64,000 nt of DNA from a virus (IMGVR_UViG_3300035698_003705:1366-65365); one strand, 5' to 3'. Shown: positions 6,455 through 42,106, counted from the first letter of the stretch. The notes: generated by a model from the letters alone, not told the origin. Translations and numbers: made by a program.

Positions 6455-6667
6455 ATGAAAACTTTGTCAGAAAAAATCAACGGTGCTAAAAAAGTGTACG
6501 ACAAAAATAGAAAGGACGTGGGTAAGCTGCTCAAGGACTTGGACGCAGGCATGAAAAAGCACACTCAAGCTTTCCAGAAGGACTCAGTCAACTGGGGCTA
6601 TGTTGGGGACATTACTGCTGTTAAGGAAGATCTACAAAAGATTGTAGACTTCTTAGCGGATCAGTGA
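6455..6667 (+). CDS. Small helical hypothetical protein
   Basis: AGGAG RBS and a 70-aa ORF containing NWGYVGD. Confidence 0.75.
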   Translation: MKTLSEKINGAKKVYDKNRKDVGKLLKDLDAGMKKHTQAFQKDSVNWGYVGDITAVKEDLQKIVDFLADQ

Positions 6668-21903: not shown

Positions 21904-22581
21904 ATGTCCAATTATAAATTCTCTACAGATCTGAGTACTAAGGAACTAAAAGAGCTAATACCTCACAATGCTGTAACTGTTCTTGTAGAAACCTTCCAAG
22001 GCAAACAGAGATATAAAGCTGTTGACAGCCTTGAACCCACAGATAAGATTCAGGTAAACAATCAGGGTATCCCGATCACAATGAAGAAAAAGCCGGGCCG
22101 CCCGCAAGCACCTGATATGGTGGCTATCAATCCTGTTGTAGCAGAGTTGTTGAAGCGAAAAGGCCACACACTCCAAGAAGATCCCATTTTACAAGCTGTT
22201 AGGAAGGATTCTGAAAACCCCGATGTTTTACATCAAGTAGTTTTAGCTTTGGTGAATGAGGCTTCCAGTTTGAGTTGGGAGAGGCAAGAGGCAGAACGTG
22301 AGGGGCGTGAGACCAGTAACATTTCTATCCGTAGGGTAAACACTCTAAAAGCATTAGCTGACACTTGGATGAAACGTAGGGACCAGGTCACTACTAAAGG
22401 TGCTGACTTAGGGTCGCCTTCTTACAGGGCATTGCTTAAATTTCTTTTAGAGACCTTCCAAGAGGCACTCCATGATGCCGGTGTACGGGACGAAATGACG
22501 GAAACTGTTTTCGCACGTATGGCAAAAGCTATGGATAATGACTGGGAATCAGAAGCAAGAAACCGAATGAAGAACGTGTAG
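21904..22581 (+). CDS. Putative terminase small subunit
   Basis: Helical protein with KKKPGRP immediately upstream of the large terminase. Assigned by position. Confidence 0.5.
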   Translation: MSNYKFSTDLSTKELKELIPHNAVTVLVETFQGKQRYKAVDSLEPTDKIQVNNQGIPITMKKKPGRPQAPDMVAINPVVAELLKRKGHTLQEDPILQAVRKDSENPDVLHQVVLALVNEASSLSWERQEAEREGRETSNISIRRVNTLKALADTWMKRRDQVTTKGADLGSPSYRALLKFLLETFQEALHDAGVRDEMTETVFARMAKAMDNDWESEARNRMKNV

Positions 22582-22591
22582 GATGGTATAG

Positions 22592-24472: not shown

Positions 24473-24720
24473 ACGCAGAAGTACCTATCAGAGCAGACTA
24501 CCGCATTATTCAACAGATACTTTCTTCCAGTCTGTCTGGTAAGGTAGAGCATGACCCCAAGGAGTATCAAAAAATTGTTGGTGCTTTTAAGGTTGCAGGT
24601 GGGTCTTGGGAAAAGGTTTTCAAAGGGAGTGTTGATGACATAGTGTTGCTGAAGGACCTTATTAAGAAAGCTTTTGATGCAGGTGACTTGACAAAGAAAC
24701 ATGATTGGGAGGATTTGTGA
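24469..24720 (+). CDS. Hypothetical protein
   Basis: AGGAG RBS and overlap with the terL stop. Confidence 0.7.
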   Translation: MNAEVPIRADYRIIQQILSSSLSGKVEHDPKEYQKIVGAFKVAGGSWEKVFKGSVDDIVLLKDLIKKAFDAGDLTKKHDWEDL

Positions 24721-25016
24721 GAAATAGATCGGCAAATAGAGAGTTGCTGCAATCCGTACAAGAGGCAGACAACCTGCTTCAGCGGATTAGACTTCAGATC
24801 CCAAATGCTTGCCGTCCACAGGTTCGTAAAATGCTCAGTCAGTTAAGGAATCTTCCGGGCTTGGTAGAGACAGAACTTAAAAGGGAAGCCCGTGACCAAG
24901 AAAGAGAAGTGCAGCGTAAGGTGGATCATCAGAGAAGGATAGATGCACGTCAAAAGCGGAGAGAGTCTACCTGGGTATCCCCAGTGGAGGAGTTGTTAGA
25001 TGGCGAAGAAGAATAA
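24717..25016 (+). CDS. Hypothetical basic helical protein
   Basis: GGAGG RBS and GTGA overlap with the previous gene. Confidence 0.65.
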   Translation: MRNRSANRELLQSVQEADNLLQRIRLQIPNACRPQVRKMLSQLRNLPGLVETELKREARDQEREVQRKVDHQRRIDARQKRRESTWVSPVEELLDGEEE

Positions 25017-26691
25017 ACCAGAAGATACTACCCCAGTCAAAGTAATCGCACCAACTAAAGGTGTTGTTGTGGGCAAGCCGGGGAAGGTTATCACATCAGC
25101 TATGCGATCTAAAACAGCCTTTGGTATGACCACGGGCGGTACAGCTCAGGGTGCTGGTGGTAACTTTTACAGTCCTGAATTGTCAACGGACTTTTTAGAA
25201 CTACCACAAAGTAGGGAAGAGCAGTTAGAGTTTTATCGCTTCTTTGCTAAGTATCATCCTTATGTAAGTCAAGCCCTCAGTTTGATGACTGAACTACCTT
25301 TGAGTAAAGTCAGGCTGCGTATGCCGGAAGCTAAAAACCGGGGTCTAGCTGAAAAAGCCATGCGTTATTGTGAAAACTGGTCCCGTAAAATGCAATTGCT
25401 TCAAAGGCTGATGGAAATCACCAGGGAGTATTTCCTAGCCGGAGAGGCTGCTATATTTGCAGAAGACACAAATCCCGAGATGCCGGACACGGTAAGGGCA
25501 CAGCAGATACGAGAAATTAAAGAAGACGGGACGCTTATTGAGAGTTGGGAAGAATATCCGGATGCAGATGCCAAAGCAGTTGCTTGGTTAAAGAAGAACT
25601 ATAAGGGGTGGACAGCAATTCGCACACTGCCCCCGGAACAGATTAAAATAGAGTCTTTCCCCTTTACGGATGAGAAGCTGGTAAACCTTGTTCCTGATTC
25701 TAAGTCCAAGGCTATTGTGGCAAAAGCCTTGTCAGGTGACCCCGAGGCTGAACGTATTGCTAACTCAATGCCACAAGAGATTTTAGATGCTATTCAAGAT
25801 GGGCGGGATATCAATCTAAACACCGATCCAGATGCGGGTTCCTTCGTGTATATCTTGGCCCGTAACAAAACACAGTATGAACCTAATGGGCACTCTATCC
25901 TAGAGTCCTGCATGAGAGCCCTGGTATTTGAGGACAAAATTCGTCAAGCTTTGAGTAGCATCGCTTCAAGGCATATGACCCCTTACCGGCTAGTTTATGC
26001 CGCAGATATGAATGACGAACAAACAGAGGCGCTCAGGGATCAGGTAGACCTTGCTATGCAAGATCCTGATTATTCTCTTGTTACAAACTTTGAAGTTACT
26101 TGGCAGGAGATGGGGGCAGACCAAAGGCTTCCTGATTGGTCCTGGGCACTTGAAATGACACATCAGCACTTATATGCCGGTTTGGGTATGACAGAAGGTT
26201 TACTTACAGGTGAATCTAGTTATAGTGGTGACAAGATTAGTCTGGAGGTTATCAACACACGCTTCATGCAGCTCCGTGAGTTGCTACAAGACCTTGTAGA
26301 GGATTACTTCTTTGCTCCTATGTGTCGGCGTATGGGTTTTGTAGAAGAGGATGAGGATGGCAACATGGTAGTTCTAACACCTAAGCTATCATTCACAAGG
26401 CTAGCTATGCGGGATCAGGCTGAGACTTTTGATGCTCTGTTCAATCTATATCAGAAGGGTTCAATCAGTATTGACATCATTTTGGACCTCTTTAACATAG
26501 ACCCTGTTACCACAGAAGAAAAACTGCGTAGGGATATGTTTGGACCTAATGACGCTCTGTTTAATGAGACACTCCGTGGTGTGTATTCCGGTGCTTCTGA
26601 TAAAATCATAGAAGGCACGGATGCGGTTGAGAAAATAGCAGAAGGTATGGGACTTAAGTATACAGCACCTAAAGAAGATGATCGTTTCTAA
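25000..26691 (+). CDS. Portal protein
   Basis: 563 aa downstream of terL. HPYVSQAL, REYFLAGE, GHSILES and AGLG..LL follow the portal pattern. Confidence 0.8.
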   Translation: MAKKNKPEDTTPVKVIAPTKGVVVGKPGKVITSAMRSKTAFGMTTGGTAQGAGGNFYSPELSTDFLELPQSREEQLEFYRFFAKYHPYVSQALSLMTELPLSKVRLRMPEAKNRGLAEKAMRYCENWSRKMQLLQRLMEITREYFLAGEAAIFAEDTNPEMPDTVRAQQIREIKEDGTLIESWEEYPDADAKAVAWLKKNYKGWTAIRTLPPEQIKIESFPFTDEKLVNLVPDSKSKAIVAKALSGDPEAERIANSMPQEILDAIQDGRDINLNTDPDAGSFVYILARNKTQYEPNGHSILESCMRALVFEDKIRQALSSIASRHMTPYRLVYAADMNDEQTEALRDQVDLAMQDPDYSLVTNFEVTWQEMGADQRLPDWSWALEMTHQHLYAGLGMTEGLLTGESSYSGDKISLEVINTRFMQLRELLQDLVEDYFFAPMCRRMGFVEEDEDGNMVVLTPKLSFTRLAMRDQAETFDALFNLYQKGSISIDIILDLFNIDPVTTEEKLRRDMFGPNDALFNETLRGVYSGASDKIIEGTDAVEKIAEGMGLKYTAPKEDDRF

Positions 26692-26727
26692 GCCTATTGA
26701 ATAAGGTTATTCAGGAGGGCTTCATCT

Positions 26728-27321
26728 ATGAGTATTTCTATTCGAATAGCACAGCAATGGTTGAAACTTAATGCAGAACAAGTGCATTCTGGTTTAGGCT
26801 TGTTTATTCCTTTGCCTAAAGACCTTGCTAAACAGTTCCCTTCTTTAGGATCTGAAGACACTTCTCCAAGTCATGTAACTTTTCTTTATGTTGGGGATAT
26901 GGTCTCTGAAAAGGAACAGAAGTTCCTTGCTATAACAAGAGAAGTGTTTCAACAATTCCAAGGGCCGGTGGAAGCGAGCTTGGACTATTTGGATTATTTC
27001 CCACAGCCATCTGAAAATAAAAAGGTTGCTTTGATGCGTGTGCGTTTTGGCAAAGACTTGGCTGCTTTAAGGTGGCAGTTGAGAGAAGCACTGTTAGACG
27101 CGGGCATAGATGTAAAAGACAGCTTCCCTTTAGTCTACCAGCCACACGTCACACTTGCATATATGGACGGCTTAGACTCTAAATATACGGGGGGGGTTCC
27201 TGAAGGCAACTGGTTTATTACAGGGGCGGAAATATGGGGTGATGGCAAAGAGCCCGTCCCTATTCCTTTTGGTTCAACAGCACAGAAGTTGGGTCAACGT
27301 TGGCTGCGGGAGAATGATTAG
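26728..27321 (+). CDS. 2H phosphoesterase (LigT / Acb1-like)
   Basis: Two HxT motifs: SHVTFLY and PHVTLAY. Confidence 0.9.
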   Translation: MSISIRIAQQWLKLNAEQVHSGLGLFIPLPKDLAKQFPSLGSEDTSPSHVTFLYVGDMVSEKEQKFLAITREVFQQFQGPVEASLDYLDYFPQPSENKKVALMRVRFGKDLAALRWQLREALLDAGIDVKDSFPLVYQPHVTLAYMDGLDSKYTGGVPEGNWFITGAEIWGDGKEPVPIPFGSTAQKLGQRWLREND

Positions 27322-29168
27322 TGAGACACCAGACCTCAGTTGCTTTGATGAAGTTCCTTTCTGCTGTGGCCCGGAAGTTGGGCGTAGCTGAGCATATTTA
27401 CGTGGTAGGTGGTGCTGTTCGTAACTTTGTGATGGACCCTACGGGGTCAAAGTACCCCATAAAAGATATTGATGTTGTTATAGATTCAGTTGCATTAAAG
27501 GGGAGGGACTCTGCTTGGTTTGCGAAACAGCTTGTTAGTGCTATCCCAGCAGCTACAAGCTTAGTGACTAATAATTATGGTGTGGCTATAATTACAATAA
27601 ATGGTGATTGGATACTCGGTGGTAGTTCTTTAAAGGGAGAGGTTGTTGAGATCGCTAATGCCAGAAAAGAGTCATACGGTGAAGCTGGTGGTAAAGGCTA
27701 TAAACCCCACATGGTAGAGCCTGCTGCAATAGAACAGGATGTTATGCGGAGAGAGTTTTCCTTTAATACTTTATTGTGGAGATTGTTGGATTTGGCACAT
27801 GGGCCTGATAAAGCAGAAATTATTGATTTAACAGGGTGTGGGCTGCGAGACTTAAAGAATAAGGAGATGCTTTGTCCAAGAGATCCTGATATTGTATTCA
27901 AAGATGATCCCAGTCGTATGATTAGAGTCGTGAAGTTTTTATTGAAGTATGGTTTTAAGATACCCCCGGATGTTAAGGCTTCCATTAAGCGGAACAGCCC
28001 CAAGTTGAAAAACATCCCATCTAGCCATTTATCAAATATGTTGATCAACACGTTTTTTGAACCAGGCGTCGGAAAACAGGCTTTACTTGAAATGAAGCGG
28101 TTGGGTTTGTTAGACACTATAACAGAGATAGCAAGGACTGACAAAGCATTCCAAGCAGCTTTGGCACACTGGGCGAATAAGAATGCCTCTATACAGTTTG
28201 TTTTTGATTTAATGGATTTGGGCATGCCTTCGGGGAAACGAATCTCATTCCTTGATACGGGGCAACAGAAAAGATTGCGTGAATTGACAGTCCAGATGTC
28301 AGCAGATGAGTCTGATGCTTATGTAAGGGTGCTTGAACAGCCCGGTAAAGTTTTAGACATGCCAGCTTTGATAGCAGAGTTTGGGCTGACAGGTGTTCAA
28401 ATAAGGACTTTGTTACAGACAGCTAGAGAAGTACTACTAGAGAAACCTAACTTAATAAAGAAAACCCACCAACTAGAGGATGCGGTAAGACTTATGATGA
28501 ATTATTATGGTAAAAAAGCAAATCTCTCGGGCATTGTAGAAGTGCCCAAGAACACACACCCTGTAACTGTAGACCCACCTAAACCCCCCAACAGAAAAAA
28601 GTATCCTTTTGTAGGCTTTATTGACTTTCAAGGTTTAGAGATTGATGTTGAAAATAAGAAGGGGGATACTCGTAAAGGAGAGAACTCAGATGGTACAGAG
28701 TGGGCAACCTATATGCACAACCATTATGGAGAAATACGCGGGACGGAAGGAACAGATGGAGACAAGTTGGATGCGTATGTAGGCCCTAACCATGACAGCT
28801 CCCTTGTAGTGGTTGTTCATCAAAACGATCCAGAAACAGGAAAGTTTGATGAGGATAAAGTAATGCTTGGTTTTGATTCTACTGAGGAAGCTATTGGAGC
28901 ATATAAGAAGCAGTATGACCAACCAGGGTTTTTCAAAGAGGACGAGTATTTGGAGATGCCGATAGGACAGTTTTGGCGTTGGGTACATGAGGAACGGAAC
29001 AAAGGCAACCCTACTGTAGTAGTAGAGCCACAACCCAAAGGACGGAAACAGCCCAAAGAGTTTGGACTTTATAGATTGTGGCAGGCAGACCCCGGCAAGA
29101 GGCTTGCACCGGCACAGAAGGTAGCTGCTACAAAGCTATCAAACCGTTATTTAAGCTCTAATTTTTGA
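27321..29168 (+). CDS. Class II CCA-adding enzyme/poly(A) polymerase fused to an inorganic-pyrophosphatase-like domain
   Basis: VGGAVRN, DID, ARKESY, RREFSFN and DDPSR. C-terminal HYGEIRGTEGTDGDKLDAYVG..FDEDKVMLGF. Confidence 0.88.
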   Translation: MRHQTSVALMKFLSAVARKLGVAEHIYVVGGAVRNFVMDPTGSKYPIKDIDVVIDSVALKGRDSAWFAKQLVSAIPAATSLVTNNYGVAIITINGDWILGGSSLKGEVVEIANARKESYGEAGGKGYKPHMVEPAAIEQDVMRREFSFNTLLWRLLDLAHGPDKAEIIDLTGCGLRDLKNKEMLCPRDPDIVFKDDPSRMIRVVKFLLKYGFKIPPDVKASIKRNSPKLKNIPSSHLSNMLINTFFEPGVGKQALLEMKRLGLLDTITEIARTDKAFQAALAHWANKNASIQFVFDLMDLGMPSGKRISFLDTGQQKRLRELTVQMSADESDAYVRVLEQPGKVLDMPALIAEFGLTGVQIRTLLQTAREVLLEKPNLIKKTHQLEDAVRLMMNYYGKKANLSGIVEVPKNTHPVTVDPPKPPNRKKYPFVGFIDFQGLEIDVENKKGDTRKGENSDGTEWATYMHNHYGEIRGTEGTDGDKLDAYVGPNHDSSLVVVVHQNDPETGKFDEDKVMLGFDSTEEAIGAYKKQYDQPGFFKEDEYLEMPIGQFWRWVHEERNKGNPTVVVEPQPKGRKQPKEFGLYRLWQADPGKRLAPAQKVAATKLSNRYLSSNF

Positions 29169-29194
29169 TTAGGTAGGGGGCACACAATATAACA

Positions 29195-31462
29195 ATGACT
29201 CCAGTACAGAAGATCACTTCCCGATACCTAGCAGCTAAAGACAAAATACCTGGTGGTTTAGCTCAAGGTAAAGACCCCTCAGATTTTGACTCTAAGGCTA
29301 TAGCTCGGGGTGTCAAAGTAGAGATGGAGCACACTACGGATAAGGCCATTGCTACTGAGATTGCTATGGATCATCTGACAGAGGATACTGATTATTATGA
29401 GAAGCTTGAAAAGATGGAGAAGCAGGCTGCTGAGTTAGACTACCCTGAGTACAAACTACTTGGTGCTATGGCCAAGGGTACAAAAGTTGGTTGGATTGAT
29501 GTGGGTTTACTAACTAGAACACTGGAATACCTGGATTGGGATGTTGAAGAAACTACTGCTCCAAAACCTCTTGATGATGTAAAAGATGAAAAGACCTTAG
29601 CTAATTGGGTGCTTAAATTTAAAGGGGATATAGGGGGTTATTCAGGAATAAAAGAGCCAGCATTCTTTCGGTTCAAAGAAAAAGAAGGGGCCGAGCAAGC
29701 CTTAAAGGATTTATCCTCTGTGGCAACCCGAGTACACACACCGCCTACACATCCTGTTTTAGGTAGCTACTTTGTAAAAGAGATAGGCCCCACATACTTG
29801 GATGAAACACGTTCCTTTCCTTCATGGATGTTCAAGACACAGATTTGGTGGCGGGGTGACTTTGCACTGTCTGTTTCAACAGGTGGTGGCCCAAAGACTT
29901 TATTTACCTTTAATACAGATAGGAAAAACAAGAGTCTGATTTCCAGACCAGCTTTTTGGACTTGGGCTTATAAAAACGGTCTGAAAGAACAGGCACAGAA
30001 TGTTTTGACTGGTATGGGGGCACACCCCACAAAGCCATCCAATAGGTCTTTAGAGAATACCGGGACATGTCCAGCTTGTTTTGCCAATGTGAAACTTTCA
30101 AGTAGGCGGGTTATGAGGCACGGTTGGTCTGTGCAAGGTGCAAGACAACGCTTCCAGTACGGCCTGACTTGGCATACAGGGCCTTGCTTTGGAACAGGTT
30201 ACTTCTCCTTTGAAGAAAGTAACAAAGGCACCACAGACTATATAGAGTACTTAGAGAAGGTGCTTCTCAAAAAACAAAAAATAGAACCGTCCACTGAGCG
30301 AGATATGCGGGGCTTGAAACTAGAGATAGAAGCTCTTGTAAGAGAGATTGCTAATCTGAAAGTGCGTTTGAAAACTTGGGTTAAAACAGGTGCGAGGCAT
30401 AACAAAGAGGACTACCACTCATACTTCACAACCTTGGAAGATGCAGTTAAAACGGCACAAACATTATCCAGAGGGAACAACTCTTCTTTATGGTTAGCAT
30501 GGTGGGACTTTTATGCCGTGGGGGGGCTTTGGGCAGACCATGTTATAGAACACCTTGAGATACCGCCGGGGGCAGCTAAGTCCGTGGAAATGGCTATTCG
30601 TTTGTTTTCTAAGCAGTACGGTCGTGGGAAAAGTCCTAAAGATATAAGTGCTTGGTTTGTAGGCAACAAGAAAAGACTCCAAATACTAGATGAGGCAAGG
30701 TCATGGCCTGAGAGGTCCGCTGAGAATGATGTTTTTCAAGAGGGACCCTTTACGGTTCACAATACAGTACAAGCTGCAGGGGCAGAACTTGATCGGGTAA
30801 AAGGCATTGTCCATTCTGCTATTAAGGCTGCAAGACATACAGGACTACAGGGTTTTGAAAAAGCTCTGTATGGCAACCTTTTTTTAGTAGGGCAGCTTAA
30901 ACGCCGCACTTATGTTGCTTGGTATGAGCCAGCAAAGGATTCTTTTTATCTTCGTGCTGGTATGCGGGGCGTCTCAACAGAAGAGTCGGTTCTGAATTTA
31001 CTTCACGAAGTGGCGCATAGGTACTGGGCTAAACAACTGGGCCAAGCAACGAAAAGGGCTTGGCGGCTTCATCACAATAGGATGCTGCAGCATAGTGGTG
31101 GTTTTCAAAAAGCAGAAGTAGGAATGGCACTGCCTTTTTCAGTCAACAATAAAAAGGTACACATTCAGGAAGTGATCCCTTATGAGATCACACTGGTAGA
31201 CGATGCTACAGGCAAGCTTGTGGGGAAAGTAACTCCAAGAAAACTATCAGATTGGTTGCGGGATGCAAATATGAAACGTCAGTTCCCAACACTTTATGCA
31301 GCAACAAGTGCGGAAGAACACTTTGCAGAAGCTGTGTCTTTCAGAGCGGTGGGAGAACTGAAAGGGGCTAACCTGACAGCTTATCAGCAAGTCTTAGAGG
31401 GAGCTGAAACATCTTCATACCGGCTGGCATCAAGATATCTTAGAAGGGAGGCTACCAAGTGA
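29195..31462 (+). CDS. Polyvalent protein: DUF5661-like N-domain, Cys/His region and zincin metallopeptidase
   Basis: GVKVEMEHT..AMDHL.E..YYEKL; GTCPAC..HG..C; HEVAH with YA and EEHFAE. Confidence 0.75.
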   Translation: MTPVQKITSRYLAAKDKIPGGLAQGKDPSDFDSKAIARGVKVEMEHTTDKAIATEIAMDHLTEDTDYYEKLEKMEKQAAELDYPEYKLLGAMAKGTKVGWIDVGLLTRTLEYLDWDVEETTAPKPLDDVKDEKTLANWVLKFKGDIGGYSGIKEPAFFRFKEKEGAEQALKDLSSVATRVHTPPTHPVLGSYFVKEIGPTYLDETRSFPSWMFKTQIWWRGDFALSVSTGGGPKTLFTFNTDRKNKSLISRPAFWTWAYKNGLKEQAQNVLTGMGAHPTKPSNRSLENTGTCPACFANVKLSSRRVMRHGWSVQGARQRFQYGLTWHTGPCFGTGYFSFEESNKGTTDYIEYLEKVLLKKQKIEPSTERDMRGLKLEIEALVREIANLKVRLKTWVKTGARHNKEDYHSYFTTLEDAVKTAQTLSRGNNSSLWLAWWDFYAVGGLWADHVIEHLEIPPGAAKSVEMAIRLFSKQYGRGKSPKDISAWFVGNKKRLQILDEARSWPERSAENDVFQEGPFTVHNTVQAAGAELDRVKGIVHSAIKAARHTGLQGFEKALYGNLFLVGQLKRRTYVAWYEPAKDSFYLRAGMRGVSTEESVLNLLHEVAHRYWAKQLGQATKRAWRLHHNRMLQHSGGFQKAEVGMALPFSVNNKKVHIQEVIPYEITLVDDATGKLVGKVTPRKLSDWLRDANMKRQFPTLYAATSAEEHFAEAVSFRAVGELKGANLTAYQQVLEGAETSSYRLASRYLRREATK

Positions 31463-34400
31463 CTTTTGAATCGCAAAAACTAGCAGCCCGTTATCTGAAT
31501 GCAGCAAAGTTAACTAATAGTAAACTTTGTGCTCGTTATCAAGACAAGAAAGTTGTTAAGACCCAAGACGGGGATGATATGACGGTCTACACATATAGTG
31601 ACCGGCAAATAGCTAAGCGGGATAAAGATAAGGCAGAACGCATTGATAAGCTCCGTGGCAGTATTAAGGACTTGCAAGGACAAGTGCGTAAAGATCTTAA
31701 ATCTAAGGATGAAAAGATCCGGCTGACAGCTTTAGCAGTAGGGCTCCTTGACGCATCCTTTGAAAGAGTGGGTAACTCAACTTCAGCTAAAGACGGACAT
31801 TTTGGCGTCACTGGATGGCAAGTAAAACACGTCCAGTTCAAGGGCGGAAAAGCTGTTATCAAATATGTAGGGAAGTCTGGAGTAGATCAAGAAAAAACTA
31901 TTGATACTGCAATCTCAGTTCAAGCCCTCAAGGATGCTGTCAAAGGCAAAAAGCCCGAGGATGAAGTTTGTGGCAGTGTTAATGCTACTGATGTGAATGC
32001 CTATCTTAAGCAGTTCAAGATAACTGCAAAGGATCTCAGAGGCTACCATGCAAACACTGAAATGCAGAAGCAACTGAAAGCAGTACGGGCTAAAGGTAAA
32101 ACACTTCTAGCGGACAAAAAAGAACAAGAGAAGCAATTAAAAGCGGAGTTTAAGCAGGCACTAGAAGCAACCGCTGAAGCAGTAGGGCACGAACCAGCAA
32201 CACTTAAATCACAGTATCTAGTCCCAGGGCTAGAGGAAGAGTACTTGAAGGGCGGGAAGGTTACGGAAAGCCTAAAGAAGAAAGCTACTAGGCCCATACA
32301 GATAGACAAGATCTTGATTGATGCTGAAGTCAGGGGCCTTATTTCAGATTTGAGACGGGAGCTGGGAAGAAGGCATTCTCAAAAAGCACCCTTGGGAAAG
32401 CTGGCCCCCAACTATTTTATTCTGCAAAAAGACATGGCTTACTTTGAGGGTGCTAAAAATGTTTTGGGGCGAGAGATGGCTGCACCTTTGTTAAGGGTGA
32501 CTAGTGTTGTTAGCAACCTACCTGATATGATTCTTTCAGGCGGTGCTGGAAAAACATCTAAGGGGCAGCCAGCTATAGTTATAAATCTAAACGGACGATA
32601 CACACCCTATCAGTTAGCAGAAGGCATTGTGTTTAAGAGTTCTGAGTTTAGGAAACTGTTTCTACATGAAATGACACACATACTAGATATATATAAAAAA
32701 GGTCCGTCTACGAAGAATGTGCCTACTGATTTAGATAGGGTAAAGTATGTGAATAACCCAAAAGAAGTCAGGGCTTATATGCAAGAGATTGTAGATAGGG
32801 CTTTGGAAGTGGCACCTAAGTTTAAGGGTCACTTCCAAAGTAAAGATTTTTTTAGACTTCTTATGAGAGTGACTCCCACTTGGGAAGAGGTTAGTTCTTT
32901 GCTAACACATAACAATAAAAAGCTGATCTTAAAGGCAGTATATAGATCCCTATCAGATGCTGACATGTTGCCGGAGAATGACACCATTAGGAGTCTGACT
33001 GCCCGGTGGTTAGAAGCCAGGACAGAACAATGGGGTTTGCCCGAAGCAGATGATTGGAAGGATGGCTTCTTCTCCCGGAACCCTAAATTACGTTTTTTAA
33101 ATGGTGTGCGTGTGGGCTTTGTAGAGGGTACCAAAACAGGTCCCGAAGCCCAGTGGGTGTCTAAGGGTGTGTTGCTGTATCCGAAGTTCTGGGACCTGCA
33201 GAAGCGTGTCCAGGACTTTGTATTTGCCCATGAACTAGGACACGGGGTATTAGAGAAATGGGGCTACACGGGTTTGATAAAGGCAGCAGACCAACTGGAT
33301 CTTGATATTTGGGATACCGCTAAACTGCCTTTTGCAGCACCTAATTTTGATGAAGCCTTCGCAGACTGTTTTGCTAGTTACTATGTAGATAAAGATGTGC
33401 AGCGACGTTACCCCGAATGGTCATCTTTGGTTGCACTCGCAAAGAAGACCATTAAACTAGGGACTAAGACACATACTCAAAAAGAAGACGCTGCCGTTGA
33501 GGGCTTGTTACATACTAGTCCACAGAAAAAACCACCAAGGCAAGACTTACACAGGAACCGTCTTGAAACTGAAGATACAGACTTGGAACCCCAGGGTGCA
33601 GAAAACGATGAGGACCTATCATTGAATTATAAACGAGTAGCCGCAGGATGGTTTAGACAGTTTCAAGCAAAGCATACAAAAACGGTAGAGCATAAGCCTG
33701 GAGAAGTGTGGCCTTCTGCAAAGGGTGGCCAGTGGGTAGCTAAGAATCCAGAGGGCGTAGCACATTCCTTTAAGGATAAACAGCGGGCTAAAGACTACGC
33801 TGAAGGCAAAGTAGACCCCGCAGGCACAGAAACCAAGCCTGTGGAAGATGCTCCTGTAGAGAAAGTAACGCCCGATGAGACAGTAGAACAGGAACAGCCA
33901 GAGTCACAGCCAGAGTCACAACCTTTAGAAGGTTGGAGATCCTATGAAAAGGAACCTAAACTATCGGTAGACAATAAAGACCGGTGGCTAAAGGAACACA
34001 CAGTGACCACACCTGGTGGCGGCTTGGTAATAGGATTGCCTCAGATAGATACAGCACAAGCAAAGAAAATTGGTGTGCCTGTTCTAAAAAATGATGTGCT
34101 CCCAAAAGTACGGGCAGCTATTGAGGGTGCTTTGGAGTCAGGTAAAGAAGTATTTTTTCTGGGTGATAGCTCAGTGCTTCCAGAAGACCTCAAAGATAAG
34201 GTCACTCAGGAAGGCTTAACAGATTCAAGTACTTCCTTAGATAACATGGACTCTCCTATCTGGGAAGACCTCTATAAAACATCCAAGGCAGATAAGGACC
34301 TTACACATGCTTCTATAGCTGCGTATCTTTTGGGGGCAGGGGAACCTGTTGAAAAGCTCCCCATGTTAGATGATAAGGCTAAGAAGCTTCTCAAGAAACG

Positions 34401-36888
34401 CTTTAGGGTGGATGTAGATAATATAACAGATGAGGACCGTCAAAACCTGCAAGCTATCACTTCCCCTGTAGATTCAGGAGCACCTTCTAACCCTGCTTCA
34501 AGGGTTGTAGATGCTATGAATAATCTGCTTGATAAAAACACGGTTCAAAGAATCCAGAAGTTAGAGGCCGCTGGGAATGTGGTTGTTGCTACACCTGGTG
34601 CACCGCACGCCTGGAGTATGAAACCTGTTTTAGAGAAAGGGTCTGCTCCGGCTAAAAAACCAGAGACTCCTACTAAACCCATTGAAGAAGAAGCACCTGT
34701 AGAAACACCTGTAGAAACACCTGTAGAAGCACCTGTAGAAACACCTGTGGCTCCTGTTAAGAAGGCTCCCAAAAAAGACACGCTGGCAAATATCAAACAG
34801 CAGTTGGATTCTTCAGGTCTAGACAAGGCTACTATCAAAACCTTAACAGCACGTCTAGGTGACTTGTCTGACAGTGCCTCACAGCAGGTTGTTGATAGCT
34901 ATAGGAGCAACCTAGCTTCTTTTAGGGGTAGGACCTTAAATGAAAGCCTTATGGAAGATGTTGCGGATGCTTCTAACAACCTACAGAAGTCAGGGGTTGC
35001 TGCAAGTGTTTTAGGAGAAGCATTGGCTGCTCATACTTTTGCATACAACACACTAGCTAATCCAGCCATTTTAATTAAAGGGACAAAACCTGAAGTACTT
35101 ACAGCAAAAGCAGCAGAACACTTTGGGGCCCTCAGTCCTCTGATTCGTCAAATGGCAATAGGAAGGATGCTGTCCCAAATAAGTGATGCTGGTTCTGAAG
35201 AGTACTCTCAACTAGCAAGAGTTCGGGACGGTTTGTTTATGGCTTCTGTTATTGCAGGAGATGATAAAGCCTATCGCAAAGTTGACGGACAGTCCTTACT
35301 ACCAGAACCATCAAAGCAACTTAAGTCTCTTGTAAAGATGCAGCTAGATAGGGGAGAAGATATAGGTGACTTAGCAAAGGCAGACTTTTATGCACCTGAA
35401 GGGCGTAATGCTCTGCGAGAGCATATGAAGACGATGCCTATAGATGATGTGGCTGAAATTTATAGTGCTGGTGATAAGGATGTTGAAAGCATTATAAAGG
35501 ATGCTTTCAATAAAGCTACAGCTCCATGGCAAAAAACTATGCTGCGGGGGTTTCTGCAAGATTCTGTGATAAACGAAATGACTGTGGTGCACAACCTGAT
35601 AGCTTCAACTTTTAAGTCAGGTACAGCATCTCCAGAAGAAGGTGCCTCAAAGACACATAAAAAAGCACTTCCTACTGATCCAGAGGAAATCACTAATCTA
35701 ATGCGACACTTGATGGACCAGTCTATAAAGTATAAAGGTGTGGCTGTTTCAGAACTACTGTCTTGTATTACAAAACCAAATAGTACAGAAGAAGGGTGTA
35801 GAGAACAGCATAGACAAGGTATATTAAAGCAACTAGATCCTATCTGGGAAATGCTTCAAAAAGAGTACGACTTAGATCCAGGTAATCCTTCTGTAGCACA
35901 GTTGCGTAAAACTTTGTTAGATAGAAACCCTGATGAGTTAGATAAACTTTTCAGGACTACAGAACAGCATAAAAAGGCGTTTATTTCAATCTTTAGTTTA
36001 TACGGAGAACATAGTAGCGAGGGGCGTTGTGTCTCGCGCGGCCTGTTTTCTGATTATTTAATGAGGAGGATTCTCATGGGATCTATGTCGAAAAAGGGTG
36101 CTAAGCAAGTTACATCCGCCCTGGATAATGTAGCTAATTTGTTTCAACAGGATTGGGAAGCCATGGGCGTACCTCAGAAGGTAGCACATGATTTTGCATA
36201 TCGTTGCGATATCCTTAGTGAGCATTTGGAAAAACGCGCGGGCAAAGTTGCCCTGACGGAAGATGACGTTGTTAAAGAAAAGGGTTTTAATCCTGACACT
36301 ATTGGCGAAGAAGTCAGTGGGCCATTGGAGCAGGATTCAGACGAAAGTTTCATGAAGGGTGAGTTCACCCAGCAGGAAAACCGAGAACTTCGGAATCGCT
36401 ATGAAGATGGTGACCTTGGTGTTGATACAAACCCTGAACCGGAAGCACCCTCAGCTGGTAAGCAGGCTTCTTTTGCAGACTATGGTATTAAGGTAGCTTC
36501 TCAGAATCTGAGCCTTGCTATTAACAAGATTAATCGTATGGCTTCTGAAGGCATCTCTCCCGTATTGGCTTCTAGTCTGCTCGGCCTTAGCCAAGCTGCT
36601 CTGGGCGTTAAGATGGGCCTCTCTACAGGTAAAACCTCAGCAGAGAAGGTTGCAGATGTTCTTGAGGCACTATCTGTGCTGAACACTGTTCCTAGTAACA
36701 AACTGGCTGAAGCCGTTATTCTAGCTACCAAGGTAGCAGACGATGACGAAGATGATGATAAGGAAGACAAGGATGATGATAAAGACGAGAAGAAGATTCC
36801 CGACTTTATCCAGGAAAAAATAGACGCCAAGGAAGAGAAGGAAGAGAAAAAAGAAAAGAACGCCCACACTTTTAAGCTTTACGCATAA
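31459..36888 (+). CDS. 1809-aa polyvalent protein: topoisomerase IB catalytic domain, two zincin domains, unknown domains and an acidic C-terminal head-like segment
   Basis: Topo IB pentad in ERVGN, GKSG, KDLR and GH..QY. Zincin motifs HEMTH..EVRAY and HELGH..EAFAD. Confidence 0.82.
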   Translation: MTFESQKLAARYLNAAKLTNSKLCARYQDKKVVKTQDGDDMTVYTYSDRQIAKRDKDKAERIDKLRGSIKDLQGQVRKDLKSKDEKIRLTALAVGLLDASFERVGNSTSAKDGHFGVTGWQVKHVQFKGGKAVIKYVGKSGVDQEKTIDTAISVQALKDAVKGKKPEDEVCGSVNATDVNAYLKQFKITAKDLRGYHANTEMQKQLKAVRAKGKTLLADKKEQEKQLKAEFKQALEATAEAVGHEPATLKSQYLVPGLEEEYLKGGKVTESLKKKATRPIQIDKILIDAEVRGLISDLRRELGRRHSQKAPLGKLAPNYFILQKDMAYFEGAKNVLGREMAAPLLRVTSVVSNLPDMILSGGAGKTSKGQPAIVINLNGRYTPYQLAEGIVFKSSEFRKLFLHEMTHILDIYKKGPSTKNVPTDLDRVKYVNNPKEVRAYMQEIVDRALEVAPKFKGHFQSKDFFRLLMRVTPTWEEVSSLLTHNNKKLILKAVYRSLSDADMLPENDTIRSLTARWLEARTEQWGLPEADDWKDGFFSRNPKLRFLNGVRVGFVEGTKTGPEAQWVSKGVLLYPKFWDLQKRVQDFVFAHELGHGVLEKWGYTGLIKAADQLDLDIWDTAKLPFAAPNFDEAFADCFASYYVDKDVQRRYPEWSSLVALAKKTIKLGTKTHTQKEDAAVEGLLHTSPQKKPPRQDLHRNRLETEDTDLEPQGAENDEDLSLNYKRVAAGWFRQFQAKHTKTVEHKPGEVWPSAKGGQWVAKNPEGVAHSFKDKQRAKDYAEGKVDPAGTETKPVEDAPVEKVTPDETVEQEQPESQPESQPLEGWRSYEKEPKLSVDNKDRWLKEHTVTTPGGGLVIGLPQIDTAQAKKIGVPVLKNDVLPKVRAAIEGALESGKEVFFLGDSSVLPEDLKDKVTQEGLTDSSTSLDNMDSPIWEDLYKTSKADKDLTHASIAAYLLGAGEPVEKLPMLDDKAKKLLKKRFRVDVDNITDEDRQNLQAITSPVDSGAPSNPASRVVDAMNNLLDKNTVQRIQKLEAAGNVVVATPGAPHAWSMKPVLEKGSAPAKKPETPTKPIEEEAPVETPVETPVEAPVETPVAPVKKAPKKDTLANIKQQLDSSGLDKATIKTLTARLGDLSDSASQQVVDSYRSNLASFRGRTLNESLMEDVADASNNLQKSGVAASVLGEALAAHTFAYNTLANPAILIKGTKPEVLTAKAAEHFGALSPLIRQMAIGRMLSQISDAGSEEYSQLARVRDGLFMASVIAGDDKAYRKVDGQSLLPEPSKQLKSLVKMQLDRGEDIGDLAKADFYAPEGRNALREHMKTMPIDDVAEIYSAGDKDVESIIKDAFNKATAPWQKTMLRGFLQDSVINEMTVVHNLIASTFKSGTASPEEGASKTHKKALPTDPEEITNLMRHLMDQSIKYKGVAVSELLSCITKPNSTEEGCREQHRQGILKQLDPIWEMLQKEYDLDPGNPSVAQLRKTLLDRNPDELDKLFRTTEQHKKAFISIFSLYGEHSSEGRCVSRGLFSDYLMRRILMGSMSKKGAKQVTSALDNVANLFQQDWEAMGVPQKVAHDFAYRCDILSEHLEKRAGKVALTEDDVVKEKGFNPDTIGEEVSGPLEQDSDESFMKGEFTQQENRELRNRYEDGDLGVDTNPEPEAPSAGKQASFADYGIKVASQNLSLAINKINRMASEGISPVLASSLLGLSQAALGVKMGLSTGKTSAEKVADVLEALSVLNTVPSNKLAEAVILATKVADDDEDDDKEDKDDDKDEKKIPDFIQEKIDAKEEKEEKKEKNAHTFKLYA
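34690..34749 (+). repeat. 12-nt tandem repeat (about 5 copies) encoding an E[AT]PV linker
   Basis: GAA(G/A)CACCTGTA units. Confidence 0.9.
36076..36888 (+). CDS. Probable nested in-frame gene (270 aa) within the polyvalent ORF
   Basis: AGGAGG at 36064-36069 precedes ATG 36076. An AT-rich promoter-like sequence lies at about 35978-36017. Confidence 0.6.
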   Translation: MGSMSKKGAKQVTSALDNVANLFQQDWEAMGVPQKVAHDFAYRCDILSEHLEKRAGKVALTEDDVVKEKGFNPDTIGEEVSGPLEQDSDESFMKGEFTQQENRELRNRYEDGDLGVDTNPEPEAPSAGKQASFADYGIKVASQNLSLAINKINRMASEGISPVLASSLLGLSQAALGVKMGLSTGKTSAEKVADVLEALSVLNTVPSNKLAEAVILATKVADDDEDDDKEDKDDDKDEKKIPDFIQEKIDAKEEKEEKKEKNAHTFKLYA

Positions 36889-36897
36889 GGCGGTCTA

Positions 36898-37503
36898 ATG
36901 GCCAAAATTAAACAAGCATACGTGGATTTTCAACAGAGAGCTACGGAGTTCTCTGTTGGAGACTCCGTATATCCATTCATGTCTGGAAACAACAACCTGA
37001 TCGGCACTGTTGTAGCTGTTTGGCCAGCTATAGGTATGGTAGATGTTGAGTGGCCCCACGGGTCCCAACGTATGCCTGTAGAGGAACTTGCTAGATATCG
37101 GAAGATTGACTTTCAGCCTCCTCAAGTAGGACATGATAATGTTCCAGGTGGGGCAGGGACGGTTTCTGTTTCTGGTGGCCCCTACAAGCCAACAAAAGAA
37201 GCAAAGACCAAGCTAGTTACTGCTTACTTGAAAAAAGCTCTTTACTGGGCTGCCCCTGATCGTAAATATCAGGCTTCGCAGGATGAGCTTAGTCAAGGAC
37301 AGTTTTTGTGCCCCCGTTGTAAGGAGGCCGAACTTAGGACAGCTTCTTATAAAAGAGAAGGTGGTACAAGTGAACGCTTACTTGCGTGTCCTGCTTGTCT
37401 GTTTCTGATTCGTCAGTGTGATGTCAAAGGACACCCTGAATATGAGGACACTCAAGTCAAAATGCCTTTCACTAGGATTCGTTTGGTTGGGGAAGATAAT
37501 TAA
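36898..37503 (+). CDS. Hypothetical head-module protein (SH3-like domain plus zinc ribbon)
   Basis: FSVGDSV..GTVV..VDVEW and CPRC..CPAC. Confidence 0.75.
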   Translation: MAKIKQAYVDFQQRATEFSVGDSVYPFMSGNNNLIGTVVAVWPAIGMVDVEWPHGSQRMPVEELARYRKIDFQPPQVGHDNVPGGAGTVSVSGGPYKPTKEAKTKLVTAYLKKALYWAAPDRKYQASQDELSQGQFLCPRCKEAELRTASYKREGGTSERLLACPACLFLIRQCDVKGHPEYEDTQVKMPFTRIRLVGEDN

Positions 37504-38975
37504 TGGCAATGCTTAAAACAGCCCGTGCACGTGTTGTACACCCGCACATTAAACCGTCGCAGTGGAATAGAGTTAAGACCGCTTCTAAGTCAACTTCTAA
37601 GACTGCTTCAGCGGTGAATGCTGATTTGACGGCTAAGGCAACAGAACTGTTGGGTGAAGCTTTTGATCCTGATAAATATTTGTTGTCCCACTGCACGATA
37701 GTGGCCTCTGTGGACACATATACTCCAGAAGGTACTAAGACAGGTACGCTTGTTGAAAGTGGTAAAAAGATTTACCGTAAATTTTCAGATTTTAGAATCA
37801 CACCTGAAACAGCATCTTTTATAAATCATAACTTTGATAGCTGGTCACGTGATGTTATTCTAAAGTCATATAAAACCTTCATTGGTGGTCAGAATTATAC
37901 TGAACACGTTCAGTTGGAGAATCTTTCAAAGGGTCGTATTATAGATGCTGTTGTTCGTGACGTAGGCTCATCACTATATGTTGACATTCTTGTTGCAACT
38001 AACAGAGAGCATACTGAACTTGTTAAGGCTATTGAATCAGGTAAGATGGGTACATTATCAATGGGCTGTAGTATCCTGGGATCTAGTTGTACAAAATGTG
38101 GTAATTGGGCTCCTGATGAAACAGAAATGTGTGAACATGTAAAATATGAGAAGGGCAACACCTTTTTTGATAGTAATGGTGTACAGCATGTTGTAGCTGA
38201 GACTTGTGGCCATAGTTCCATTGAAGGTGGCGGCGTTACATTTATAGAAGCTTCATGGGTAGAGACACCTGCTTTTACAGGGGCCGTGCTCAGGAACATA
38301 CTGGAACCTACGGAACAGATGGCTGTTCAGGCACAGAAGATTCTTAGCACACCACCTACTCAATGGGCAGAAGACTCCCAGTTAAAAGCAGCTTCTACAA
38401 AGTTAGCTGAATTAGCAGAAGATGAGTGGATGGGTCAGGAACCTGACGCTACTGAGGAAGCACCCATAGAAGAAGAGGCTGGTCCTGATACAGAAGAAGC
38501 ACCAGTAGAAGATACTTCCCTGTTGCAAGACGTGGAAGATGATGCTGCCCTAATAGTAAAGAATAGAATACGAGACAAACTGAAAAAAGAGCTGGGTTTT
38601 GAAACTCCCGGCCATGGTGTGTCAGAACTACAGAACGATAATCTTAATCAGGTTGCTGCTCTGAGAGTATATAACGCCAGCTTAGATACTTTGACTAGAA
38701 CAGCATCTTCGGACGCTGCTTTAATAAATGGAATTGCACACCTCAATAATAGTTTGGGCGTGAATGTTCCTATGGCTCTTTATAGAGCAGCTTTGAAAAT
38801 AGGTGACCCTGCAGACCACGGTACAGTATTAAAGTACAAGAAGGCTTGTAAGCAAGCTTTACTGCGGGAACCTAATAATGTGGAAGCAAAGATGTTGTTG
38901 CATCTTGCGTATATACTCCATCAGAGAGGGTCTTTGATGGACAAGCCTGGCAGTTTTGCCAAAAAAGGAGATTAG
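37503..38975 (+). CDS. Prohead (capsid maturation) protease
   Basis: EH..KGRIIDA, LSMGC with a Zn-ribbon insert, and EASWVETPA. HK97/herpes-type fold, upstream of scaffold and capsid genes. Confidence 0.8.
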   Translation: MAMLKTARARVVHPHIKPSQWNRVKTASKSTSKTASAVNADLTAKATELLGEAFDPDKYLLSHCTIVASVDTYTPEGTKTGTLVESGKKIYRKFSDFRITPETASFINHNFDSWSRDVILKSYKTFIGGQNYTEHVQLENLSKGRIIDAVVRDVGSSLYVDILVATNREHTELVKAIESGKMGTLSMGCSILGSSCTKCGNWAPDETEMCEHVKYEKGNTFFDSNGVQHVVAETCGHSSIEGGGVTFIEASWVETPAFTGAVLRNILEPTEQMAVQAQKILSTPPTQWAEDSQLKAASTKLAELAEDEWMGQEPDATEEAPIEEEAGPDTEEAPVEDTSLLQDVEDDAALIVKNRIRDKLKKELGFETPGHGVSELQNDNLNQVAALRVYNASLDTLTRTASSDAALINGIAHLNNSLGVNVPMALYRAALKIGDPADHGTVLKYKKACKQALLREPNNVEAKMLLHLAYILHQRGSLMDKPGSFAKKGD

Positions 38976-38977
38976 CC

Positions 38978-40339: not shown

Positions 40340-40375
40340 TCACACAACCCCTATCTAAAAGATAGGACACTTTAA

Positions 40376-40405
40376 GAAAACAGCCTCCTTTTGGGGGCTG
40401 TTTTC
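40376..40405 (+). terminator. Rho-independent terminator
   Basis: GAAAACAGCCTCC-TTTT-GGGGGCTGTTTTC hairpin followed by T-rich sequence. Confidence 0.75.
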
Positions 40406-40513
40406 GTTTATATCCTTATATAAACTACATATCTATAGAAAGGGGTCTCAAGCCCCACTGTTGCTAACTAGGTTGTTAGTGACGGAGAACAGTTTTTTAT
40501 TGAGGAGGTTATC

Positions 40514-41212: not shown

Positions 41213-41227
41213 GGGAGGGCAAATAAA

Positions 41228-42106
41228 ATGTCTGAAGTAACTAATGTTGCCCGACAGCAAGTAATTGGCGAGTATATCAGGACCCCACAGGGTCGTGCTA
41301 AACTTGCGGCCTCTATGACCCAACCCTTGCGTATGCGCCGTGACTATGCCGCCGTTGGCCGTAAAACCTTCTTGGTTGAACAGCTTCCTGACGGTGCCAC
41401 CCCCGTTTATGACAAAGACCCAGAAATGGTAGCTTATGTTGTAGGCGAGGAAGGCGAAAGCATCACCGCCATTGCCAAGTCACGTAGGGTGATTTTCCCC
41501 CTATTTGAACTTGCTTCCCTGCCTGAGATCCCCCTCAGCCAGATTAAAGAAAGACGTTTTGATCTAATCGAACGTTCACTTGATCTTGCCAAGGCTCAGA
41601 TTCAGGCCGCAGAAGACGAGAGAGTGTTTGCAGTTCTTGACAGCATCGCTGTTGCAGGCTTTGATTCACTTCCTGGTCAGCTTAACCCGGACATCCCGGT
41701 TGTAGCTCCTGTAAGTGCTGCTGTTCTTTCAGATGCCTTTGGGCTGATTGAACGACATGACCTGCGTGTGGCTCGTGTTTACATGAATGCTCGTGACTAT
41801 GCGGATCTCCGTAAGTTTGGGCGTGACGTGCTAGACATTGAGACTCAGGCCTCTTTGCTGAAGACTGGTCTTATGGCTACCCTTTGGGGAGCACAGATCG
41901 TAACATCACGTCTGGTACCCGTGGGAACAATTTATTGTTGCTGCGAACCAGAAATGTTTGGACGAATCCCTGTTAGGACCGAACTTACTGTTTTGTCTGC
42001 TGATGATCCCAAGGCTCGTACCATTGGTTTCTCAGTATTCGAAATGCTGGGTTTGGGCGCATTCAATCCTAGAGGATTGACACGTCTAACCATCACACGT
42101 GGCTAG
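41228..42106 (+). CDS. Major capsid protein (compact HK97 fold)
   Basis: 292 aa. E-loop-like VVGEEGE, backbone helix AKAQIQAAEDERVF, MNARDYADL, LWGAQIVTSRLVP. Followed by a terminator. Confidence 0.85.
   Translation: MSEVTNVARQQVIGEYIRTPQGRAKLAASMTQPLRMRRDYAAVGRKTFLVEQLPDGATPVYDKDPEMVAYVVGEEGESITAIAKSRRVIFPLFELASLPEIPLSQIKERRFDLIERSLDLAKAQIQAAEDERVFAVLDSIAVAGFDSLPGQLNPDIPVVAPVSAAVLSDAFGLIERHDLRVARVYMNARDYADLRKFGRDVLDIETQASLLKTGLMATLWGAQIVTSRLVPVGTIYCCCEPEMFGRIPVRTELTVLSADDPKARTIGFSVFEMLGLGAFNPRGLTRLTITRG

Follow-up and report, generated by a model that had tools for sequence, protein, structure and literature searches.

The protein described here is encoded on the forward strand of a 64,000-nucleotide (nt) stretch, hereafter the window, of the viral contig IMGVR_UViG_3300035698_003705. 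Its open reading frame (ORF; 27321..29168), delimited from the ORF list and from Pfam and PHROG matches, is predicted to specify 615 amino acids (aa) comprising a tRNA nucleotidyltransferase (NTase), an InPase domain and a C-terminal tail. The ORF belongs to the head module, beside the portal gene, as an earlier sequence-only reading of this DNA had proposed; between the two is a gene for a 2H phosphoesterase. It starts with GTG, and a one-base overlap of this codon with the TAG stop of the upstream 2H gene (TAGTG) couples the two genes translationally; a GGGAG box is positioned 8 nt 5' of the start. The analysis was wholly computational.

Four segments, all on the + strand, make up the protein. 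A class II NTase with head, neck, body and tail (aa 1–405; 27321..28535), defined by model, fold match, profile and motifs, is followed by a flexible linker containing GKKA (about aa 406–414; 28536..28562), where model confidence is low: the blocks spanning aa 401–420 of the NTase model have predicted local distance difference test (pLDDT) values of 55 and 50. The linker with KKA in the sequence-only reading was thus recovered. Next comes the InPase module (aa 415–562; 28563..29006), a miniature family-I pyrophosphatase (PPase) as judged by Pfam, fold and conserved residues, and finally a tail (aa 563–615; 29007..29165) delimited by module comparison and a motif scan, in which disorder is predicted between about residue 577 and residue 614 (pLDDT < 50). 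Among PHROG families the N-terminal part matched tRNA nucleotidyltransferase (phrog_2244, 5.3e-23) and the InPase part matched 'minor head protein' (phrog_4660, 7.9e-28); other PHROG labels matched by the InPase part were virion structural protein, DarB-like antirestriction and endolysin.

The nucleotidyltransferase and InPase domains

Pfam places a PolyA_pol head (PF01743) at aa 26–182 (E 7.6e-11; 42.9 bits against a cut-off of 23) and InPase (PF18823) at aa 432–555 (E 2.9e-40; 137.7 bits against a cut-off of 26.8); on these E-values both domain calls are far beyond chance. The class II NTase motifs named in the sequence-only reading were all located, with GGAVRN at aa 30–35, DID at 49–51, RRE at 143–145 and DDPSR at 195–199. 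Alignment of 54 stand-alone relatives, 38–67% identical, identified G30, G31, R34, K48, D49, D51, R115, E117, R143, R144, N149, D169, D196, R199 and R202 as invariant, and these residues correspond to class II motifs A–D. In motif A, whose DxD is catalytic, GGAVRN...DID aligns with GGFVRD...DID of structure 3h37, the CCA-adding enzyme of Thermotoga maritima. In motif D this enzyme has DDPTR in the same columns as DDPSR, so the templating variant of the target is compatible with a proven CCA-adding enzyme. No HD domain was found among Pfam families at E <= 0.1, again as first read, and the HD-type CCA enzyme family NF008137 scored 33.5 bits against a cut-off of 451.

Searched against the PDB, the family profile had 3h37 as its best match (6.6e-29), followed by other CCA enzymes (1.9e-26 to 3.5e-22) and Escherichia coli poly(A) polymerase (4e-22). 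The AlphaFold (AF2) model of the NTase part has a pLDDT of 94.1 and shows the head-neck-body-tail architecture over about 400 aa, with model residues 1–397 aligning with T. maritima CCA-adding enzyme 3h38 in VIA (Z 22.9; root-mean-square deviation (rmsd) 4.7 over 282 aa). Further fold matches were the CCA-adding enzymes of Planococcus halocryophilus (6qxn, Z 21.3) and Geobacillus (1miv, Z 20.0, 319 aa), an A-adding enzyme (4wby, Z 20.4), E. coli poly(A) polymerase (3aql, Z 17.4) and CC-adding enzymes (3wf* entries, Z about 16); Foldseek ranked the same enzyme families. Alignment with tRNA-bound CCA enzymes, 5hc9 among them, takes in the body and the tail. By sequence and model, then, the N-terminal segment constitutes a complete tRNA nucleotidyltransferase of class II, most like the CCA-adding enzymes.

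For the InPase domain, an alignment of 32 sequences showed E444, R451, Y469, D479, D481, D484, D510, E511, D512 and K513 to be invariant, and the acidic metal-binding residues are present as DxDxxD and DEDK. The best PDB match of the InPase profile was the C-terminus of the Pa193 portal gp19 (9b41, 1.6e-35), followed by 18 family-I pyrophosphatases at E 0.1–0.75; in all 18 the stretch YG..T..DGDxLD aligns to residues 47–73 of E. coli PPase, with DGDkLD at residues 65–70. No structure of a PF18823 member has been solved, residues 529–765 of the Pa193 portal being without density (PMC11456595). The InPase model has pLDDT > 90 over fragment residues 1–150 and is confident for aa 415–565. In Foldseek all seven matches at E <= 0.001, and indeed all listed rows, were family-I PPases (best 3.9e-4), and in the wide VIA search against representatives ranks 1–8 were all family-I PPases (Z 5.2–6.3; 116–130 aa; rmsd 3.4–4.3), the next rank being an unrelated fold at Z 4.3. 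These PPase Z values are modest; in combination with the Pfam score and the conserved signature they support a family-I PPase fold, which is an OB-type barrel, and the PPase-like C-terminal domain of the sequence-only reading held up when its fold was checked. The domain spans about 135 aa by comparison with about 170–175 aa in the matched PPase chains, which is consistent with a missing beta-hairpin insert; InPase has been described as being without this insert of the cellular enzymes (PMC5512222).

The InPase domain was defined by Iyer 2017, who noted portal fusions and proposed a nucleotide-like substrate or pyrophosphate (PPi) clearance (PMC5512222). No assayed member of PF18823 was found in the literature, where the phage InPase is known from that computational study (PMC5512222). 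Most probably the domain acts independently of its partners, as a hydrolase of PPi or of some similar phosphoanhydride.

The head-module block, its giant relatives and its fusion partners

Four genes lie between those for the portal and the prohead protease: the 2H gene, the NTase-InPase gene, a gene for a DUF5661/metallopeptidase-like protein and one for a topoisomerase-IB giant. Upstream of them are the terminase gene (TerL; 22592-24472) and the portal gene (25000..26691, +; phrog_16240, 6.7e-19; Portal_Mu, 6.4e-5, 22.9 bits, just under the cut-off). The 2H (LigT-like) phosphoesterase (26728..27321, +; PF13563, 1.4e-7) has 197 aa and two H-V-T motifs, and its NCBIfam match to the RNA 2',3'-cyclic phosphodiesterase TIGR02258 (5.2e-8) is below the cut-off. 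Downstream of the target, a 755-aa protein (29195..31462, +) carries DUF5661 at aa 38–76 (PF18905, 1.5e-10) and a C-terminal, metallopeptidase-like HExxH region (HEVAH); this region matched no Pfam or PHROG profile, and an Atlas match to zincin-like metallopeptidase clusters (score 0.93) is a lead only. Peptidases of the zincin-like type are known to accompany polyvalent proteins (PMC5512222). The 1809-aa giant (31459..36888, +) has an N-terminal type IB topoisomerase core (PF01028, 2.7e-28, aa 52–251), followed by long unannotated regions, and contains HEMTH and HELGH motifs. A gene for a 201-aa protein separates it from the prohead (head maturation) protease gene (37503..38975, +; phrog_18299, 1.1e-10), which bounds the block downstream. 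A 453-aa protein is encoded after the protease, and the major capsid protein follows at 41228..42106 (+; phrog_2522 major head protein, 1.2e-47).

The source record is an IMG/VR contig of 65,365 bases, classed as linear, with a CheckV completeness of 12% and neither terminal repeats nor signs of circularity. Its nearest GenBank records are the uncultured 485-kb phage LR745208.1, Tunturiibacter phage Tunturi_5 (308 kb) and Bacillus phage G, and the window is therefore taken to be a piece of a huge phage. LR745208.1, the closest sequenced relative, whose capsid protein is 81% and terminase 61% identical to those of the window, is colinear over terminase, portal, topoisomerase-IB protein, protease and capsid (locus L004, 394000-414000, versus 22592-42106 of the window). 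It lacks the 2H, NTase-InPase and 755-aa genes and carries a much shorter version of the 1809-aa protein. As the head module is kept without these genes, the block is dispensable, variable cargo, and the portal-proximal site is marked out as a hot spot of cargo exchange. In Tunturi_5, the nearest cultured relative by capsid (46%), there is no such block in the annotated region after the portal. A search for tRNA genes found none in the window, nor any in the complete record of 65,365 bases, although at 12% completeness this absence settles nothing about a role in tRNA maturation. A second RNA-repair set lies far from the head module, with a Pnkp-like gene (AAA_33 kinase and PNK3P phosphatase; 5025-6053) and an RlaP nucleotidyltransferase gene (6664-7749) on the same fragment as the target; the 65-kb record yielded no RNA ligase of family PF09414.

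Among 1.84 billion cluster representatives the NTase core is common: 16,910 of them match it at E <= 1e-3, and 503 still do so at E <= 1e-30. Some of the proteins consist of the core alone (about 390 aa); others, which can be as long as 3,381 aa, contain it as one part. The full architecture is rare: of the 150 best cluster representatives, P0001 and P0002 were the only ones with a continuous match over both domains, and P0067 has both in a different order. In a scan of IMG/VR, 189 relatives were found, and the locus counts rest on the best 80, which include several near-duplicates. A portal gene upstream together with head genes downstream of the NTase was present in 38 of these 80 loci; five had the portal upstream only, five had head genes downstream only and 32 had no recognisable head gene nearby on either flank. 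The placement beside the portal, which had been called unusual, is thus the rule in the NTase clade, where a portal homologue lies upstream in 43 of the 80. InPase is present in eight of these loci, and the N- and C-terminal parts of the 1809-aa protein in 41 and 34, respectively.

In several relatives the block is a single polypeptide. The giants P0239 (2,084 aa), P0242, P0245 and P0252 contain the 2H domain, the NTase, in some cases a small module, the C-terminal part of the 755-aa protein and parts of the 1809-aa protein in the order of the four genes of the window, so that the NTase is covalently part of 2,000–3,400-aa proteins with topoisomerase-IB and metallopeptidase-like parts; at locus L007 one 3,032-aa ORF holds 2H, NTase, InPase and a metallopeptidase-like part. 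On the strength of these colinear giants and the L007 ORF, we regard the block of the window as a split polyvalent protein, divided in this phage among four genes that are linked in translation.

Fusion partners were tabulated for 120 listed NTase relatives with Pfam domains (a dozen 835-aa entries with HAD being close kin) and for 120 of the 198 InPase matches, 43–83% identical to the query in the InPase domain; all partner counts derive from retrieval-biased samples. NTase partners were HAD_SAK_1 (24/120), 2H (15), DUF5661 (9), InPase (5), a C39-like peptidase (2), inteins (2), RNA_ligase (1) and a Zeta/AAA_33 kinase (1); of these the 2H, HAD_SAK_1, kinase and RNA ligase are RNA-repair domains. 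Among all 247 NTase-bearing proteins retrieved, the NTase was fused to 2H in 51 and shared a chain with InPase in six by phmmer, P0067 being one more by Pfam; P0002–P0004 combine NTase, InPase and 2H in one chain. InPase partners were DUF5661 (10/120), 2H-type domains (7), AAA_33 (5), NTase (4), PF06381 (3), which we take to be portal-type, and topoisomerase IB (2); single listed proteins pair InPase with NUDIX, PF00226, PF00210, PF18760 or PF04233, the last of which is presumably MuF. In P0137 a 2H-SAK domain occurs together with InPase. A tblastn search of 50,697 cultured-phage records with the whole protein gave 522 matching records, of which 293 were Pseudomonas phages with InPase on the portal; identity in the NTase part reached at most 34%. 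From the variety of its partners, InPase is best described as a free-standing module shuffled among head-module cargo proteins. We had also considered whether the distributions of InPase and the HAD phosphatase are complementary, as a hint of a role for InPase in end healing: no protein had both, and the idea was dropped as the numbers were too small and the sample retrieval-biased.

In several relatives the NTase match was found in two pieces 0.5–1.8 kb apart, broken near aa 132–152 or aa 245 (loci L054, L056, L060, L068, L069, L082 and L083; proteins P0044, P0100, P0244, P0255, P0290 and P0314). P0044 and P0100 have intein and LAGLIDADG Pfam domains, and in several relatives the conserved NTase core has apparently been invaded by inteins.

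A candidate RNA 3'-end repair kit and competing explanations

With a probability that we put at roughly 0.55, the block encodes a head-packaged RNA 3'-end repair kit in which the target supplies a CCA-type NTase and a miniature family-I PPase within a split polyvalent set. From their conserved catalytic residues and fitting folds, the two joined domains of the 615-aa protein are predicted to be active enzymes; tRNA as the substrate, CCA specificity and the substrate of the InPase are likewise predictions. The block is probably packaged in the head and injected with the DNA, given its position, its fusion with portal-borne domains and the analogy with polyvalent proteins (PMC5512222). Two traits of such proteins were found here, with at least two unrelated catalytic domains per polypeptide (NTase and InPase, in relatives of up to 3,381 aa) and an encoding place among virion genes, from portal to protease, that recurs in the 38 loci flanked on both sides. 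That the 2H enzyme and the NTase might heal and rebuild tRNA 3' ends is suggested by the repair-type partners of the NTase and by the Pnkp and RlaP genes on the fragment. In the mechanism we propose, the products of the four genes would be loaded into the huge-phage head and delivered with the DNA to the cell, where the 2H enzyme would open 2',3'-cyclic phosphate ends and the NTase would rebuild the missing C, C and A on damaged 3' ends of host (or phage) tRNA, so that translation could survive host nucleases and toxins that attack tRNA. The InPase would serve injected proteins as a general-purpose module that hydrolyses pyrophosphate or some phosphoanhydride related to it, and incidentally would favour nucleotide addition over pyrophosphorolysis.

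Several findings weigh against this proposal. CCA-adding and A-adding or other tailing activities are inseparable by sequence or fold, the gap in Z being < 3. Motif B, which serves ribose recognition, is RRE where the solved enzymes have an aligned RRD, a conservative change, with E145 at least 90% conserved in the family; the PolyA_pol_RNAbd match at aa 211–265 reached 18.1 bits, under its cut-off of 22; and the best single-sequence NCBIfam match was PcnB. None of the 522 matching cultured-phage records covers at least 80% of the target, the head module of LR745208.1 does without most of the block, and 32 of the 80 related loci have no head gene nearby. The record covers 12% of the genome, and CCA-less tRNA genes of the phage could lie in the rest and give the enzyme an ordinary role in maturation. 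Polyvalent 2H domains, it has moreover been argued, may be RNases or degraders of 2'-5' oligoadenylate rather than repair enzymes (PMC5512222).

Cells already own abundant PPase, a point that bears on the proposal of the sequence-only reading that the InPase is a built-in PPi sink, co-adapted and there for the particular purpose of driving the CCA addition that the fused NTase would perform. CCA addition does release PPi and is reversible, as the older name tRNA CCA-pyrophosphorylase among the NCBIfam matches recalls; NTase, InPase and 2H share one chain in P0002–P0004 and in the L007 ORF; and PPi clearance for NTases in general was proposed by Iyer 2017 (PMC5512222). However, the pairing is rare on both sides (six of 247 NTase-bearing proteins, plus P0067, and four of 120 listed InPase proteins), and in the L007 chain the two domains are about 400 aa apart. 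InPase also joins topoisomerase IB, 2H and portal-type domains, which release no PPi, and it is 57–83% identical across these contexts, pointing to an autonomous role. As it was stated, then, the sink gives way to a mobile module that joins many unrelated domains; a dedicated sink is possible but not indicated, and we consider it unlikely. It seems more doubtful still that the target is an unpackaged late enzyme for cytoplasmic tRNA maturation or maintenance in a tRNA-bearing huge phage, placed in the head module by accident. CCA-adding enzymes are common in huge-phage translation toolkits (PMC7162821; PMC7824862), tRNA genes may exist in the part of the genome outside the record, and the 32 loci without head genes nearby would suit such a role; yet the 65,365 bases at hand contain no tRNA gene, the position between portal and head genes is conserved in the 38 loci, the NTase is built into chains of 2,000–3,400 aa with topoisomerase-IB and metallopeptidase-like parts, and the fused InPase is otherwise found on portals and in 'minor head' or 'virion structural' PHROGs.

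A hostile function for the NTase, as an injected enzyme that tails host RNAs with poly(A) or C/A for decay and, with the 2H protein as an RNase, shuts off the host, would accord with several of the same data. The class II family includes the bacterial poly(A) polymerase (PAP), the best single-sequence PDB and NCBIfam matches of the NTase part are PAP/PcnB, and RNase-like roles have been favoured for polyvalent 2H domains (PMC5512222). However, the PcnB matches missed their curated scores (TIGR01942, 78.5 bits versus a cut-off of 305.65; NF008634, 41 versus 702), and CCA enzymes rank above PAP both by profile (6.6e-29 versus 4e-22) and by fold (Z 22.9 versus 17.4). The full body and tail align with tRNA-bound CCA enzymes such as 5hc9, and the fusion partners are healing and sealing domains, with HAD_SAK_1 in 24 of the 120 listed relatives besides the kinase and the RNA ligase; we therefore think an attack enzyme very improbable.

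The repair kit we favour has counterparts in several known systems. T4 Pnkp and Rnl1, which are synthesised once the phage has infected the cell, mend the anticodon loop of tRNA. The block resembles these enzymes and the Swiss Army Knife (SAK) repair domains (HAD_SAK_1, 2H-SAK) in that a phage would mend tRNA cut by host defence, and the likeness extends to the NTase relatives fused to HAD_SAK_1, kinase, 2H and RNA ligase and to the Pnkp and RlaP genes on the fragment. Unlike the T4 enzymes it is encoded among head genes, and its probable target is the tRNA 3' end; Pfam found no SAK-type HAD or 2H domain in the target itself. The HD-type CCA enzyme of E. coli has 2',3'-cyclic phosphodiesterase and phosphatase activities. 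Like this multifunctional enzyme, the system described here would pair nucleotide addition with 3'-end healing, through a 2H domain that is neighbouring here and fused elsewhere; unlike it, the target is without HD, and healing would come from an unrelated fold encoded by a separate, coupled gene. With the bacterial HD-less class II CCA enzymes (T. maritima 3h37/5hc9, P. halocryophilus 6qxn, Geobacillus 1miv) the target shares the four-part architecture over about 400 aa (Z 20–23) and motifs A–D, and with that of T. maritima also the DDxxR templating form. In contrast to those enzymes it is about 20% identical to them, has RRE for RRD and a poorly recognisable motif E, is fused to InPase in a phage head module and is known from sequence alone.

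As in the polyvalent and portal proteins (PMC5512222; Pa193 gp19, 9b41), a PF18823 member is found here in a virion-gene context, but its partner is a class II tRNA NTase, a combination that goes unmentioned in the main text of PMC5512222. The N4 virion RNA polymerase and the P1 Dar proteins are similarly large, multi-domain and encoded with structural genes, and their entry along with the DNA is known or proposed (PMC5512222); they act on DNA, transcription and restriction, whereas RNA 3'-end repair is proposed for the present proteins, which are known from their genes. That InPase occurs in virion proteins was already published in 2017, and so was the proposal that it removes PPi on behalf of NTases (PMC5512222). 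The term 'CCA' does not occur in the main text of that paper (PMC5512222), and our literature search found no paper on a head-module, virion or polyvalent CCA enzyme; CCA-adding enzymes are listed as phage genes without a virion link in a jumbo-phage survey (PMC7824862) and a huge-phage paper (PMC7162821). InPase as a module of virion proteins has thus been known since 2017, and an NTase-InPase repair cargo of the head module was not found in print.

Defences that act at the tRNA 3' end give the kit a possible purpose. The toxSAS enzymes pyrophosphorylate the tRNA CCA end (10.1101/2021.04.30.441581; PMC9712102), MenT toxins extend tRNA acceptor stems (PMC10435456), and Cas12a3 cuts off tRNA tails in a way that viral tRNAs cannot circumvent, the viral counter-measure being called unknown (PMC12851939). 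The 2H and CCA-enzyme cargo of the head module is a concrete candidate counter-measure to such defences. A further-reaching version, which we hold only tentatively and would sooner doubt than affirm, is that a large, uncultured clade of huge phages preloads its capsids with a tRNA 3'-end kit (2H, CCA enzyme and sometimes PPase) that enters before phage genes are expressed and counters immunity that disables CCA tails, such as Cas12a3 and toxSAS; in its boldest form, the InPase would strip the 3'-pyrophosphate added by toxSAS-type toxins. If true, this version would supply the 'yet unknown means of resistance' sought in the Cas12a3 paper (PMC12851939). The head-module cargo as a counter-measure would extend the concept of polyvalent proteins from DNA, restriction and transcription to RNA repair, and would revise the 2017 view of polyvalent 2H domains as unconnected to repair. 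The target also provides a first functional handle on the InPase domain.

The C-terminal tail, a junction motif and downstream features

The tail of the target, which had been read as a C-terminal tag, does exist, but is the remnant of a larger element: aa 563–600 (nt 29007-29120) correspond to no more than the second half of a basic, roughly 55-aa module (GDxVxYGKYKNKxG…EPxPKGRKQ…). Immediately flanking the NTase on one side or the other, this module occurs whole in 14 other retrieved proteins (including P0005, P0033, P0057, P0239, P0259, P0296 and P0300); it has no Pfam match and might be an RNA-binding accessory.

Near the C-terminus of the target is LSNRYL (aa 606–611; nt 29136-29153), and sequences of this type are a module-junction motif. 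The pattern [ILVM][ASTG]x[RQK][YW][LM] occurred eight times in 14 head-region proteins scanned, and all eight copies fall within the four genes at 26728-36888, where the motif is found at the N- and/or C-termini of every product and once inside the 1809-aa protein; seven of the eight are within about 10 residues of a protein end. Loosened to [YWF] and [LMIV] at the last two positions, the motif was present 167 times across 361 retrieved proteins, compared with 51 in shuffles, and it recurs between the domains of the related giant proteins with the consensus R-V-A-x-R-Y/F/W-L. In 23 of 113 fusions a still looser form precedes the NTase core by at most 30 aa, versus 2.8% of random windows. Around InPase domains it was found in only 1 of 78 cases downstream and 2 of 76 upstream, and therefore is not a general InPase flank. 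The motif may be a protease cleavage site or a (capsid-)targeting signal.

Across 22000-41500, promoter-like sites were uninformative (27 found against 26.3 expected). A strong terminator-like hairpin, with a 13-bp stem followed by a T-rich tail, lies at 40376-40405, past the 453-aa gene and ahead of those that lead up to the capsid; no other strong + strand terminator was found in this interval, and there is none between the portal gene and 40376. Just past the capsid gene, a 720-aa protein (42313-44475) has a weak DNA methylase match at aa 518–570 (PF01555, 2.9e-4, below the cut-off).

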